Counted from the stretch's first letter, positions 1 through 10,143 are shown. The stretch: 24,630 bases of DNA from a candidate division WOR-3 bacterium (GCA_965649215.1 CBFGJZ010000025.1:1-24630), one strand, 5' to 3'. Notes: generated by a model not told the origin, from the sequence alone. A program made the numbers and translations.

Positions 1-3000
1 GATTCAGCAGGTAATGTATTACAAGCCAAAATCGGTTATGGTCAATATACTGAAATTGCAACTTCGATGATTAAAACAATATCGGAACCCGGCTACATTT
101 TGACTGGTTGGACCAGAGATTTTGGGGGGCAAGCTCGGAAAGCCAATATATTCGTAATAAAATTAAATTTGGATTTGAGTGTTGCTTGGGGAAGAATCTA
201 TTCTTCGGCAGGTGCTTATGAAGACCGGGCATATTCAATAATTGAATTGTCACCAGTACTCGCTCCCACGGGTGGTTATGCAGTGGTTGGTTGGACTGAA
301 TCAGCAACTCCGCAACCAGGATTAGTACTGATGCAGTTAGATTTATCAGGCAATCAAGTTGCGACAAGAATATATCATCGTCGCACTTGGTGGCAACCTT
401 CTCCAATTCTGACACCAACCGAAGGATATGATTTAGTTGAAGTGTTACCGGCACCAAATGTACCGGCTGGTGGTTTAGCAATAACTGGTCGCACAATGCA
501 TCCTATGTATCCAGGAACATATGATGCTTTTACAATGCTTGTTAATCATACGGGAAGTGTTGTTTGGTTTATTACAATTACAGGGACTTATGATGATGAA
601 GGATATTCGATTATATTTGATAATGACCCGGCCGGACCTTTTGTGGTTAGTGCGGGTTGGACAAATAGTTTTGGACCTGGCACAGGCGGCGGTGCCCAAG
701 GACCAGCAAATGTCTTTATCTGGAAAATTAGCATACTCGGCATTGAACTATGGAAAAACGCATATGGTCTGGAAACCGGTGATGAGAAATTAATGGATGA
801 GCAAGGATTATTAAGAACCACGGATGGTAATTATGTAATCGCCGGTTGGACCAATAGCACTGGACCAGGTATTCCTAATTCCAATTTCTGGATGATGAAA
901 GTCATGAGTAATGGCATTATAATGTGGTCAAAAGCACATCCGAGCATTCCTGGTTCTGGAAATGAACAGGCATTTCCAATAATCGAAACTTTTAGCTCAA
1001 TGGGTGCACCAACTGGTTATGCAGTGGTTGGTTGGACTGACAGTCCTGAATTCGTGATTGGACAAGAAGATTTTCATTTTGTAACATTAGATCCAACTGG
1101 TTCTCGACCGCGGTGTGTGCTTGAAGCACCGGTTGCGATGTTAACAATCCCATACAGCGAACCTGAGACCGCAGTGTTTTATATAGAACCATTTGATTAC
1201 ACAATAATAACCTTACGCGATACAATTGTGCAGTCACACGAGATATGCGGTTCAGTTGATACCAATGATGTTGGACCGACTGGTATTTTCTTTACGCCGT
1301 CTTCACCGTTTGATTCAACAGATATTGTGATCCCTTCTGCGTACTTATACAATTATGGCAATACGACGGTCAGTTATACTGCACAAATGGATATCGGTTC
1401 GTTTTACTCCAGCACTTACAATGTAGTTAACCACGCACCGCAAACAACAATTCAGGCCGACTTTCCGAACTGGACTGATTGGCCAAGGGGAACACATTCA
1501 GTTACTGTTTATACCCAATTAGGTTCAGATGGTAATCGGAGCAATGATACTTTGACAAGTTCAGCAACTGTGCATGTGCATGATGTTGGTACGATTGAGA
1601 TTAATTATCCTACCGGAACTTTAGATTCAACTGCAACTTTTACACCACAAGCGAAAGTTAAAAACTATGGTAATGTGCAAGAGACATTTAATGTTAAATT
1701 TTCAATTGATGGTCCAGTCAAAACAATTTGGAGCGACGATACTACAGTAACAGTTCAACCAGGAAATATTTTAGCAATTGATTTCGCTCCCTGGACAGTT
1801 ATTAGCAGAGGTGATTACACAACTAAATGTTCCACTGCACTTACCAACGATATGGATAATACTAATGATTTTCAAGATAGTGTATTTACAGTTGTAGGTC
1901 AAATGGATCATAATGTTGGGACAGTTGCTATTTATATGCCAACATCAGGGAATATTGATTCGGTTGCCACAATTACGCCACAAGCCAAAGTGAAGAATTA
2001 TGGCACCAGCCAAGAGACTTTTAATGTTAAGTTTACAATTGAAGGACCAACCAAAACAACTTGGACGGACGATACAACTGTGACTGTAAATGCATCTGAA
2101 GAACTTACAATAGATTTTGCATCTTGGACAGTTGGGCCGCGTGGTGATTACACGGCCAAGTGTTCAACCGAACTTTCGACTGATATGTTTAGCGCAAATG
2201 ATAAAAAAGAAGTTTCGTTTACGATTGTGGTTCCGCCGCCAGTTATTTCCGGTTGGGCATTAAAAGAGTCAATTCCGCATCCCCAGGATTTGAAAGCAGG
2301 TAAATATGTCAAAGATGGTGCGTGTATGGCGGTTGAAGATGGGAAAATATATGCATTTCCTGGTAATAAATCATGGCAGTTCTTTAAATATACAAAGGGC
2401 ACGCCAGGGTATTGGACAGTTTTAGAGTCGATTCCTTACGGGCCAAAATCATCTGACCCTACTAAACTAAATAAAAAGAAAGTAGGCAAAGGCGCGGCGA
2501 TGTGTGCCGAAGGCGATAAAATCTATGCAGTGAAAGGAAACGGAACAACCGAATTCTGGGTTTATTATATTAAAGCTGAAGCACCATATCCTGCTGATAC
2601 TTGGATTCAATTGGCATCAGTGCCGATTGACAAAGGATTGAAAAATGGTACGAGTATGCTACATTGGGGTAGAGCACAGGTTCATAAAATTTATCTTTTA
2701 GCAGGCGGAAGGAAAGTAGGAGAGCCCAACTTTTTTGTATATGATATCGCAACTGGTAGTTGGGATACTTTGCCTAATGCACCCACAACACCTGATAATA
2801 AGCCATTTAAAGATGGTAGTTGTATTGTCTTAGCCGATAAGAAAATTTGGGCATTAAAAGGCGGAGGTAAAAATAATTATCTCTACATGTATGATTCAAT
2901 ACCGCAAACTTGGTATTTAATCGAATCGGTTCCACCAATTCATTCAAGCATTGGCAAGAAAAAGAAAGTCAAAGTCGGTGCATCGATGACTGAATGCGAT

Positions 3001-3549
3001 GATTTGATTTACTTAATTAAAGGCGGTGGTTCAGGTGAATTCTGGGCATTTAACCCGGAAGATAGTTCATGGGCAGAAAAAGAGACAATTCCAATGTTAA
3101 ATAATAGTACAAAAAGCGTACCTAAAGCAGGCGCATGTTTAACTACCTTAGATGATAAAGTCTGGCTCTTAAAAGGTAATAATTCAGCCGAGTTCTGGTG
3201 TTATACGCCCGCCCCCAAAGATAAATCAGATATGAATATTCCAATTTCAGATGTTTCGGTAACACTTTCAAGCCCTCAAAACGAGATAATCTCAAGTATA
3301 AGACCATTACTAAGTATCACACCCAATCCATTCACCAAGATAACAACGATTAGTTATGTAGTGCCAAAAGCAGGAAGAGTAAGTTTGAAATTATATAATG
3401 CGACAGGCAGTTTGATTAAGACGATAATTGAGGAATATCACAGTGCAGGAGTACACACCTGTAATCTTTCTAATATCGCAAGCGGTGTTTATTTTGTGAG
3501 ATATACTACTGAAATCTCGAATCAAGAAATTAAATTAGTGGTGAAATAA
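1..3549 (+). CDS. Large secreted/surface protein, 5'-truncated: N-terminal beta-propeller-like repeats, three CARDB/Ig-like domains, kelch-like propeller, T9SS type A-like CTD
   Basis: Frame 1 is open from base 1 (DSAGNVLQAKIGYGQYTEIATSMIK...), so ATG 67 is internal. Motifs: repeats GYAVVGWTES/VSAGWTNSFG/VIAGWTNSTG; three Ig repeats starting DVGPTGI, DVGTIEI, NVGTVAI; kelch-like blades KGNGTTEFW, KGGGSGEFW, KGNNSAEFW; CTD LSITPNPF...LKLYNATG...ASGVYFV...KLVVK. Stop TAA at 3547-3549. Confidence 0.88.
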   Translation, partial: DSAGNVLQAKIGYGQYTEIATSMIKTISEPGYILTGWTRDFGGQARKANIFVIKLNLDLSVAWGRIYSSAGAYEDRAYSIIELSPVLAPTGGYAVVGWTESATPQPGLVLMQLDLSGNQVATRIYHRRTWWQPSPILTPTEGYDLVEVLPAPNVPAGGLAITGRTMHPMYPGTYDAFTMLVNHTGSVVWFITITGTYDDEGYSIIFDNDPAGPFVVSAGWTNSFGPGTGGGAQGPANVFIWKISILGIELWKNAYGLETGDEKLMDEQGLLRTTDGNYVIAGWTNSTGPGIPNSNFWMMKVMSNGIIMWSKAHPSIPGSGNEQAFPIIETFSSMGAPTGYAVVGWTDSPEFVIGQEDFHFVTLDPTGSRPRCVLEAPVAMLTIPYSEPETAVFYIEPFDYTIITLRDTIVQSHEICGSVDTNDVGPTGIFFTPSSPFDSTDIVIPSAYLYNYGNTTVSYTAQMDIGSFYSSTYNVVNHAPQTTIQADFPNWTDWPRGTHSVTVYTQLGSDGNRSNDTLTSSATVHVHDVGTIEINYPTGTLDSTATFTPQAKVKNYGNVQETFNVKFSIDGPVKTIWSDDTTVTVQPGNILAIDFAPWTVISRGDYTTKCSTALTNDMDNTNDFQDSVFTVVGQMDHNVGTVAIYMPTSGNIDSVATITPQAKVKNYGTSQETFNVKFTIEGPTKTTWTDDTTVTVNASEELTIDFASWTVGPRGDYTAKCSTELSTDMFSANDKKEVSFTIVVPPPVISGWALKESIPHPQDLKAGKYVKDGACMAVEDGKIYAFPGNKSWQFFKYTKGTPGYWTVLESIPYGPKSSDPTKLNKKKVGKGAAMCAEGDKIYAVKGNGTTEFWVYYIKAEAPYPADTWIQLASVPIDKGLKNGTSMLHWGRAQVHKIYLLAGGRKVGEPNFFVYDIATGSWDTLPNAPTTPDNKPFKDGSCIVLADKKIWALKGGGKNNYLYMYDSIPQTWYLIESVPPIHSSIGKKKKVKVGASMTECDDLIYLIKGGGSGEFWAFNPEDSSWAEKETIPMLNNSTKSVPKAGACLTTLDDKVWLLKGNNSAEFWCYTPAPKDKSDMNIPISDVSVTLSSPQNEIISSIRPLLSITPNPFTKITTISYVVPKAGRVSLKLYNATGSLIKTIIEEYHSAGVHTCNLSNIASGVYFVRYTTEISNQEIKLVVK
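1579..2232 (+). repeat. Tandem duplicated Ig/CARDB-like domains (copies 2 and 3) within the large CDS
   Basis: TPQAKVKNYG..QETFNVKF.I.GP.KT.W.DDTTVTV...IDFA.WTV..RGDYT.KCST.L occurs twice. Similarity is visible at DNA level (gagacatttaatgttaaattttcaattgatggtcca vs gagacttttaatgttaagtttacaattgaaggacca). Confidence 0.85.
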
Positions 3550-7303: not shown

Positions 7304-8539
7304 ATGATAAAGTTAGATCTAAAACGGTGGTATTTATTATTTATTTTATTAGCAGTTAATAGTTGTAGTGTTAAACAATCAGTAATTGTAGAATCTTTCA
7401 GTAAATTACAACCTGAATTATTTCAAGAATTACTTCGAGAGCATCCTGATTCTATTGTTAAATTGGCGCTAATTAATTTACAAAATGCCAATTCTTTTCG
7501 ATATCAATATCAATTCCGTAGCGACCGTCCACATCGCATTAGTGCTTATTTCCAAGGTGCAATAATTTTACCTACTCAAGAAGAACGTAATGGAGAGTAT
7601 GTTGTCAATGATAAGAAAAGGATTGTTAAAATCAAAGCACGGGGTAATTATCAATATCAATATCAAGCAAAGTCAAGGCAGTGGCAACTAAAACCACGGG
7701 ACGAAGAAGGGGATTTATTTATGACCCTTAATCGGGTTATTGCCAATGCTAAATATTATCTAATTGAAGAAAACGAAGCGGCTTTAAAATACACCTTTCA
7801 TCCTAATGTAGCGTTTTTAGACCCCACTTTTAGCACTCAAATTAAAGGGTATATAGTCGTTGATAAAAAATTGGGTCTACCACAAAAGATTTTTGCTCAT
7901 GATAGTTTACAAGTAATATATTGGCAAATTGATTTTTTTGATTTTAATCGAGTCGGCGGAATAAAATTTCCATTTTTACCTAATACTGAATTACAGCTCA
8001 TCAGCACCCAGCGACCTTCGCAAGCTGAAAAGAATAAGATTAGTCAAGCGCTCAAACGCAGATTGGAACTAAGTGGTGAGAGTTTTGAAATTCGAACCAA
8101 GGGTAAGAATCTATTTCTTATCCGATTGGAAATATTAGAGTCAACCTTAGATTTTAGAACTTATGAAAATTTACTGACCGCGATGGGTAATTTAGATATT
8201 CACATTGACAATGAATCACTTCCTTTATTAAATAAGTCTAATATCCAAGAAATTCGGATTTGGAGCTTTGAACCGTATCCCGAACTGGAGTTAAAGTTAG
8301 ATTCAAGTGGTATTGCTTTAATAAATGATGCATTAAAGGAGAAAGAAAAACTTTATGGCAAAGTTTATTTAGATAAGAGAGAGCTTGCAATATTTGATAT
8401 TGACAGATATAATTTTTTAGATAAAATATTCTTTCGTATTTTATCCAATAAAAACGAAGTTATGAATATTTTGGCAATTATAAAAAGTGGTTCGTTGTCA
8501 ACACCACTGGAAATTAAAGAGATAAGGAAATTACGATGA
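7304..8539 (+). CDS. Putative lipoprotein with N-terminal LolA/LppX-like fold and C-terminal soluble SecD P1-like domain
   Basis: Lipobox-like LLAVNS-C. LolA/LppX-like motifs GYIVVDKKLGLPQKI and IDFFDFNRVGGIKFP. C-terminal half has ALKRRLELSG...KGKNLFLIRL, LELKLDSSG...VYLD and NILAIIKSGSLSTPLEIKEIR, resembling SecD P1. No further TM helices. Confidence 0.6.
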   Translation: MIKLDLKRWYLLFILLAVNSCSVKQSVIVESFSKLQPELFQELLREHPDSIVKLALINLQNANSFRYQYQFRSDRPHRISAYFQGAIILPTQEERNGEYVVNDKKRIVKIKARGNYQYQYQAKSRQWQLKPRDEEGDLFMTLNRVIANAKYYLIEENEAALKYTFHPNVAFLDPTFSTQIKGYIVVDKKLGLPQKIFAHDSLQVIYWQIDFFDFNRVGGIKFPFLPNTELQLISTQRPSQAEKNKISQALKRRLELSGESFEIRTKGKNLFLIRLEILESTLDFRTYENLLTAMGNLDIHIDNESLPLLNKSNIQEIRIWSFEPYPELELKLDSSGIALINDALKEKEKLYGKVYLDKRELAIFDIDRYNFLDKIFFRILSNKNEVMNILAIIKSGSLSTPLEIKEIRKLR

Positions 8540-10114: not shown

Positions 10115-10143
10115 TTGACAAGCAAGAAAACTGTAACTATAAT
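10115..10143 (+). promoter_or_regulatory. Consensus sigma70 promoter upstream of the porV-like gene
   Basis: TTGACA (10115-10120), 17-nt spacer, TATAAT (10138-10143): perfect consensus in the intergenic region. Confidence 0.85.

Follow-up and report, generated by a model that had tools for sequence, protein, structure and literature searches.

The window, as we refer to the whole stretch of DNA analysed here, comprises 24,630 nucleotides from a candidate division WOR-3 bacterium (GCA_965649215.1, CBFGJZ010000025.1:1-24630). Between a gene for an Omp85 barrel protein and one for a GT2 glycosyltransferase it carries a gene for a predicted lipoprotein (Table 1), and our analyses showed that this protein joins a lipid-anchored domain of the LolA/LppX fold to a whole SecD P1 domain, with no SecD transmembrane (TM) helix. 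Both folds are known, and it is their combination that was not found in print. A preliminary description made from the sequence had proposed such a fusion from motifs noted within positions 7979–8539; these positions hold the codons for residues 226–411 of the 411-residue lipoprotein together with its stop codon, and the motifs quoted were found in the translation of the gene.

The lipoprotein gene and its predicted signal peptide

The gap between the stop codon of the upstream gene and the lipoprotein gene is 23 bases, and at 8536–8539 the letters ATGA combine the stop codon of the latter with the start ATG of the gene that follows. The N-terminus reads as a lipoprotein signal, with a predicted signal peptide that leads into a lipobox Cys (LLAVNS-C21), and this signal peptide formed the sole helix ahead of the two domains in the structural model described below. 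In the aligned set of 21 orthologues, a Cys followed the hydrophobic stretch in 20, and an Asp at position +2 was found in none. Lipoprotein sorting is known to depend on an Asp at +2 and, in Bacteroidota, on an acidic export signal after the Cys. Because neither the Asp nor such an acidic signal was present, the lipoprotein probably faces the periplasm.

The C-terminal half corresponds to a complete SecD P1 domain

When used alone as query, the lipoprotein gave no match at E ≤ 1 in Pfam and NCBIfam, thus also not reaching the 27-bit cut-off of the SecDF_P1_head model (PF22599), and BLASTP against the SecD of its own genome gave nothing better than an E-value of at least 4.9. Profiles of the family did reveal the homology. 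A word-index search found three relatives, at 43–49% identity, and an exhaustive search of 1.84 billion representatives gave 87 matches at E ≤ 0.001, with lengths of 227–498 amino acids and no SecD among them. The alignments used included A1 with the four closest sequences, A3 with 13 members matching the lipoprotein end to end or into its C-terminal half, A2 with 75 out of 91 proteins collected (those omitted, 16 proteins of 227–311 amino acids, looked like fragments) and A6 with the 21 orthologues.

Against the sequences of the PDB, the A1 profile had the SecDF P1 construct of Thermus thermophilus (3aqo_A) as its best match, at an E-value of 0.014. With the A3 profile the same chain was found at 4.1e-14, with profile positions 223–395 aligned to residues 22–227 of the 229 in the chain, while the best match other than SecD had an E-value of 0.79. 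The A2 profile gave 2e-14 for 3aqo_A and 3.7e-13 for 3aqp_A, followed by E. coli SecD (5mg3_D, 7.3e-8) and Deinococcus SecDF (8.8e-8 and 1.3e-7), so that SecD or SecDF made up five of the six sequences at E ≤ 10, the sixth having an E-value of 1.3.

Members of the family could also be linked to the Pfam model directly. PF22599 was matched by six of the 75 A2 members at E ≤ 0.1, and among the 69 members scanned singly, five passed its gathering cut-off with 33.5–69.8 bits (P0011, P0046, P0047, P0054 and P0070). A further one, P0058, fell slightly under that cut-off and additionally matched SecD_1st at 217–264. Since P0011 both passes PF22599 and aligns with the lipoprotein over its full length (residues 35–409), the chain of homology is short. 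Within the 4,418 open frames of at least 60 amino acids in the own genome, the A2 profile found only the lipoprotein gene itself and the SecD of that genome (E = 1.1e-5). Comparing profiles with hhalign, 24 SecD sequences of the own order were matched by A2 with a probability of 94.4% (E = 9e-8) and by A3 with 74.6% (E = 2.6e-5), and the controls with reversed SecD gave E-values of 0.84 and 0.65; with A1, only the last 18 residues were aligned, at a probability of 4%.

The aligned orthologues, all 21 of them, stop at the same point, which is the boundary between P1 and TM2 of SecD, after the helix with the G-x-L-P motif and the strand. Two orthologues of family f4 (L031 and L032) are shorter, at 338 and 392 amino acids, with the P1 head region much reduced in the alignment. 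The proposals that residues ~226–411 follow SecD P1, and that the protein finishes at the start of what would be TM2 in SecD, thereby both stood up.

The weak single-sequence searches and the shallow four-sequence profile are what could suggest that the region is a decayed secD fragment, or that its resemblance to SecD is a matter of chance. The deeper profiles and the fold match given below are at odds with chance, the family spans the phylum, and the open frames are intact with a shared end. The genome also has, as the preliminary description had anticipated, a separate and intact secDF on its contig 16, with secD (539 amino acids, PF22599 and PF02355) followed by secF (304 amino acids). Matches to PF02355 (SecD_SecF_C) in the genome were confined to contigs 16 and 5, with none in the lipoprotein frame, and SecD and SecF were present in 31 of 31 related genomes. 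We thus rejected decay of a secD gene, and give the two notions together hardly any likelihood. With secD and secF intact in its own genome, and SecD and SecF present in all 31 relatives, the lipoprotein is also not a substitute for SecD. An ordinary LolA, and a BamA-like protein with five POTRA domains, are likewise encoded in the own genome.

Predicted structure and the N-terminal domain

An AlphaFold2 model of the full-length lipoprotein, built with A2, had a mean predicted local distance difference test score (pLDDT) of 93.4 and a predicted template modelling score (pTM) of 0.81. In this model, residues 228–301 form a beta-alpha-beta-beta-alpha-beta base, residues ~302–380 a head of strands and one helix, and the chain returns by a long helix (383–395) and a last strand (402–409). 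Using VIA-align with the full model against 48,161 PDB representatives, the best superposition was again with 3aqo_A (Z = 15.5, root mean square deviation (rmsd) 3.9 Å), with 183 aligned residues at 21% identity, covering residues 227–410 of the model. Foldseek gave 3aqo_C first (3.2e-10), followed by 5yhf, 5xap and 5xan.

The N-terminal domain was modelled separately (residues 22–232, with A6; pLDDT 89.9). Its best superposition was with LprG of Mycobacterium tuberculosis (3mh9_C, Z = 14.4, 185 aligned residues, rmsd 4.7), followed by LprF (Z = 13.5), LppX (Z = 13.2) and a LolA-like protein of Bacteroides (Z = 10.9), with LolA chains at Z = 6.3–8.9, RseB at 8.3 and MucB at 7.8. Foldseek matched LolA of P. 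aeruginosa at 3.8e-7 and LprG at 1.5e-6, and the best 36 of its 70 matches at E ≤ 0.001 were all LolA, LprG/LprF/LppX, RseB or other proteins of the LolA superfamily or LolA fold. The model thus agrees with a half-open antiparallel beta-barrel with a helical lid, of the LolA/LppX fold, and an ESM Atlas model of the homologue P0005 led to the same two fold assignments. Both the LolA-like fold assigned in the preliminary description and its estimate of where the domains meet were borne out, with the border at residues 226–228.

At the sequence level the N-terminal domain is not a member of the LolA or LppX families, as judged from the comparisons made. It had no Pfam match to the models PF03548 (LolA) or PF07161 (LppX_LprAFG), and hhalign aligned it with the LolA of the order at a probability of only 1.1%. 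A PF07161 search of the own genome gave no match either, which says little by itself as the controls of that search likewise matched nowhere.

The presence of RseB and MucB among the fold matches (Foldseek 3.5e-5), both being two-domain proteins, raises the idea of an RseB/MucB-type sensor for envelope stress or regulation, in which the LolA-like domain would sense misplaced lipid and the second domain would bind an unfolded partner. We consider this very unlikely: the RseB matches rank well below LprG, superpositions of the whole proteins had an rmsd above 18 Å, and no sigma or anti-sigma gene was found in the block of the window or in the 40 related loci mapped below.

Distribution of the lipoprotein

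Used as a single query, the lipoprotein found a match in 30 of the 41 genomes of its own order, and profile A5 identified it, always as a single copy, in 73 of the 201 genomes sampled across the phylum. The same architecture thereby exists elsewhere, in full-length homologues among the 87 representative clusters. Longer, fused forms were found neither by the word-index search, which is weak evidence, nor by the exhaustive search of representatives, where nothing exceeded 498 amino acids. Searching by tblastn for remnants of the gene in four genomes lacking it gave nothing better than an E-value of at least 0.62. The three genomes of genus g3, all lacking the lipoprotein (G003, G007 and G009), each have a second LolA-like frame, of 217–255 amino acids, beside their ordinary LolA.

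In public databases the members are labelled 'hypothetical protein', from metagenome-assembled genomes called candidate division WOR-3 or TA06. The preliminary description did not recognise the fusion as described; no account of a fusion between a LolA/LppX-fold domain and SecD P1 was found in the literature searched, so this part holds, while UniRef names some members automatically by their P1 head, one cluster being called 'SecDF P1 head subdomain domain-containing protein'.

Gene neighbourhood

The lipoprotein gene is part of a block (Table 1) in which no terminator-like site was found between the Omp85, lipoprotein and GT2 genes. The protein encoded immediately upstream matched TolB in the PDB at 1e-17, together with a TamA-like barrel, and the residues H157, E158, H161 and E191 of its peptidase motif were invariant in 21 orthologues. 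A perfect sigma-70 consensus (12 of 12 positions, TTGACA and TATAAT spaced by 17 nucleotides) lies at 10115–10143, in the 180-nucleotide gap before the PorV-family gene; the promoter scan as a whole was not above chance (41 sites versus 39.4 expected).

Table 1. Features of the window discussed in the text, with strand and basis of assignment.
Feature	Position	Strand	Basis or remark
Two-domain lipoprotein gene, 411 amino acids	7304..8539, stop codon included	+	Open reading frame list; full-length homologues of ~370–470 amino acids
Predicted signal peptide and lipobox, LLAVNS-C21	7304..7366	+	Read from sequence
N-terminal domain of LolA/LppX/LprG fold, residues ~41–226	7424..7981	+	AlphaFold2 model, VIA-align, Foldseek
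Complete SecD P1-like domain, residues 227–411	7982..8536	+	Profiles, Pfam in related proteins, hhalign, AlphaFold2, VIA-align, Foldseek
Peptidase_MA (HExxH)/TolB-like PD40 propeller/Omp85 barrel gene of the 'WD40-Omp85' class, 980 amino acids	4338..7280	+	Pfam, NCBIfam, PDB
Membrane GT2 synthase-type glycosyltransferase gene, 521 amino acids	8536..10101	+	Pfam, NCBIfam; BcsA nearest solved relative, 8e-22
PorV/PorQ-family outer-membrane protein gene (type IX secretion), 368 amino acids	10282..11388	+	NCBIfam NF033709, 189 bits (cut-off 90)
Protein of 1,160 amino acids with Kelch repeats, Ig-like domain and type IX C-terminal sorting domain; probable type IX cargo	67-3549		Upstream of the block

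We mapped the surroundings of the lipoprotein gene in 41 loci, namely the window and 40 others, of which 20 were taken from the other 29 genomes in the own order that have the gene and 20 from the 47 such genomes outside it. Several of these loci are cut by contig ends, and as related genomes are not independent no statistic was put on the counts (Table 2). A recurring block was seen, composed of genes for a flavin reductase, the peptidase_MA/PD40/Omp85 protein, the lipoprotein, optionally the GT2 protein, a C25 peptidase of about 1,170–1,300 amino acids, a PorV-family protein and purA. The reading frames of the Omp85 and lipoprotein genes often overlap. At three loci (L100, L103 and L108), none of the Omp85, GT2 and C25 neighbours was present.

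Table 2. Neighbours of the lipoprotein gene in the mapped loci.
Neighbour	Window	Own order	Rest of class and phylum	Total
Omp85 gene directly upstream	yes	20/20	8/20	29/41
GT2 gene directly downstream	yes	4/20	8/20	13/41
C25 gene downstream, directly or after GT2	no	10/20	17/20	27/41

The C25 genes match the NCBIfam model of the PorU sortase (NF033707) end to end with 355–405 bits, slightly under its cut-off of 420, and in the own genome the sole full-length PorU-like gene is on contig 12. With the NCBIfam models for type IX secretion, the lipoprotein itself matched none of the families, while its neighbours matched those of PorV/PorQ and PorU. The own genome, of 1.64 Mb, has 16 Peptidase_C25 matches (e.g. 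C7:7312-8319 and C12:12207-15431), and its type IX C-terminal sorting domains number in the dozens, with these features spread over many contigs.

The Omp85 gene was found in 40 of the 41 genomes of the order and in 190 of the 201 of the phylum, and thus almost has the status of a core gene in the phylum. Ten genomes of the order have it without the lipoprotein: in five, of family f5, it is followed by PorU and PorV genes, in three, of genus g3, by unrelated genes, one is cut by a contig end and the last is G004. In this genome (L070, C46:1300-5800) the order is Omp85, GT2, PorV and purA, with about 145 nucleotides between the Omp85 and GT2 genes and the lipoprotein gene missing, which looks like a clean loss. 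Outside the own order, the Omp85 gene of 16 genomes lacking the lipoprotein was followed by def-fmt or by other genes with housekeeping roles, and in only one by a C25 gene, so that a link between Omp85 and PorU as a rule for the whole phylum was rejected.

The GT2 protein was also considered as an obligate partner of the lipoprotein. With orthologues defined at E ≤ 1e-60 and co-occurrence tallied by hand, a GT2 orthologue was present in 64 of the 201 genomes, 29 having both genes, 44 only the lipoprotein, 35 only the GT2 and 93 neither, and of the 19 genomes in family f2, all had the lipoprotein and none the GT2. An obligate partnership was rejected, as the phyletic pattern of the GT2 barely tracks that of the lipoprotein.

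Possible functions

The gene context, which the preliminary description had not taken in, is the main clue to the function of the lipoprotein. Having no SecD transmembrane helix at all, the protein cannot be a proton-driven motor, and without drive from the proton-motive force its P1 head would be a passive clamp. Our preferred reading, held tentatively and at somewhat less than even confidence, is that the lipoprotein is an unpowered periplasmic accessory that holds substrates for the Omp85 machine encoded upstream, within a set of genes connected with type IX secretion. The clamp would take up extended or unfolded polypeptide in an amphiphilic cavity, as in the head of SecD, and would serve the peptidase/TolB-propeller/Omp85-barrel protein as an accessory subunit that holds substrate for it or presents substrate to it, with the LprG-like domain acting as a second, lipid-binding hand or as a docking module. 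Because genes for a PorU-like sortase and PorV adjoin, the substrates would belong to the biogenesis of surface or outer-membrane proteins linked to type IX secretion. We infer the partnership with the Omp85 protein from the gene order, with the Omp85 gene directly upstream in most of the mapped loci (Table 2).

Published work on the separate parts is in line with such a role. A passage in Tsukazaki (2018, PMC5974789) describes crosslinking of the amphiphilic P1-head cavity to precursor proteins and a poorly conserved cavity lining, and according to a section of Alvira (2020, PMC7695460), deletion of the P1 domain of SecD in E. coli abolishes the association between Sec and BAM, the beta-barrel assembly machinery. 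In an excerpt of Heinz and Lithgow (2014, PMC4104836) the WD40-Omp85 cluster is defined and likened to a BamA–BamB fusion serving as a platform.

Several observations weigh against this substrate-holding role. With 190 of the 201 genomes having the Omp85 gene and 73 the lipoprotein, the Omp85 protein evidently works without the lipoprotein in most lineages, and given that it is near-universal, its co-occurrence with the lipoprotein (69 of 73) is uninformative. The two genes are not adjacent in 12 of the 41 loci, in G004 the GT2 gene directly follows that of the Omp85 protein with no lipoprotein gene between, and conserved gene order among related genomes is not independent evidence. The N-terminal domain is closest to the glycolipid carriers LprG and LppX, not to protein chaperones; the P1 half is less conserved than the N-terminal domain, with mean pairwise identities of about 25% versus 34%; and in the window the lipoprotein gene is translationally coupled to that of a glycosyltransferase.

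The main rival explanation, which we regard as somewhat unlikely, would instead make the lipoprotein a periplasmic carrier of lipid or glycolipid toward the outer membrane, with P1 as its docking or glycan-binding part. LprG and LppX are lipid carriers, P1 is a periplasmic module of the resistance-nodulation-division (RND) superfamily, and mycobacteria have pairs of lipoprotein and transporter. By analogy, the lipoprotein would resemble a fused version of such a pair, and its load could be a lipid-linked product, e.g. of the adjacent GT2, or the lipid anchor for type IX cargo fixed by PorU. Consistent with a carrier are the fold matches of the N-terminal domain, where LprG, LprF and LppX all rank above the LolA chains, and PDB titles in which LprG is shown with bound phosphatidylinositol mannoside (PIM) and triacylglyceride. 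The overlap of the lipoprotein stop with the GT2 start points the same way, as do the 13 loci with GT2 directly downstream, which spread over seven families and include four lacking the Omp85 gene, and the PorU-like gene downstream in 27 of the 41. Polyethylene glycol (PEG) molecules were also present in the P1-head cavities of crystals, according to a passage in PMC5974789. Against this explanation, the distribution of the GT2 orthologue does not follow that of the lipoprotein, as seen from the co-occurrence counts and from family f2; nor does carriage of lipid explain the role of the P1 domain.

Returning to the substrate-holding accessory, the two parent folds act elsewhere on lipids and on polypeptides, and the preliminary description had for that reason pictured a two-handed protein holding both an acyl chain and an unfolded polypeptide; by that analogy the lipoprotein may have both abilities. 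Taken one step further, it could be a hand-over device, in which the LprG-like domain would grip a lipid moiety and the motor-less SecD head an extended polypeptide, while docked, next to the type IX sortase, on the peptidase/propeller/Omp85 machine. This specific version we judge to be clearly unlikely. If true, it would provide a periplasmic chaperone devoted to proteins that are lipid-anchored or bound for the surface, in a phylum of the Fibrobacteres-Chlorobi-Bacteroidetes (FCB) group, and a natural experiment with a SecD P1 domain working without a proton motor in direct partnership with an Omp85 protein.

The P1 domain of SecD is believed to draw proteins out of the Sec channel with the proton-motive force, and in E. 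coli it also forms a bridge between the Sec and BAM machines. The conserved P1 domain found here has no motor, is joined to a lipid-carrier fold and is encoded next to an Omp85 protein; it would make a simple soluble system in which to examine the binding partners of P1 alone and a possible direct contact between P1 and Omp85 machines. The lipoprotein also offers a first way into the WD40-Omp85 class, which dates from 2014 and has no function assigned to it yet, and into how an uncultured phylum with abundant type IX cargo builds its envelope.

Comparison with known systems

Compared to the P1 domains of SecD and SecDF, as known from Thermus thermophilus (3AQO, 3AQP and 5YHF), Deinococcus (5XAN and 5XAP) and E. 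coli SecD (5MG3), the C-terminal half of the lipoprotein has the whole base and head with the same order of elements, and it keeps the closing helix and strand that carry the G-x-L-P motif. It differs from these proteins in lacking TM1, TM2–6, the proton pathway and a SecF partner, and in that its P1 domain has a lipid tether and a second domain joined to it; about 33 residues in the P1 of Thermus are without an equivalent in it.

In its first half it resembles the mycobacterial lipoproteins LprG, LprF and LppX, being a lipoprotein with a predicted half-open beta-barrel and helices that superpose with Z = 13.2–14.4 over 159–185 residues. What sets it apart from these, and from LolA and LolB, is an identity of only 9–12%, the lack of a Pfam match to LolA or LppX_LprAFG, and the extra C-terminal domain. 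RseB and MucB likewise consist of two domains and are periplasmic, the first domain being LolA-like and the other binding a partner. In these, however, the partner-binding domain is unrelated; their fold match is less strong (Z ~8), and the sigma-E type of context has no parallel here.

The protein encoded upstream resembles the WD40-Omp85 subfamily as described in a part of Heinz and Lithgow (2014, PMC4104836), with a beta-propeller before the Omp85 barrel, and goes beyond that class in adding an HExxH peptidase domain. As a lipoprotein encoded beside an Omp85 protein, the protein studied here is finally reminiscent of the accessory lipoproteins BamB–E of BAM, although it has no relation in sequence or fold to these or to TamB.

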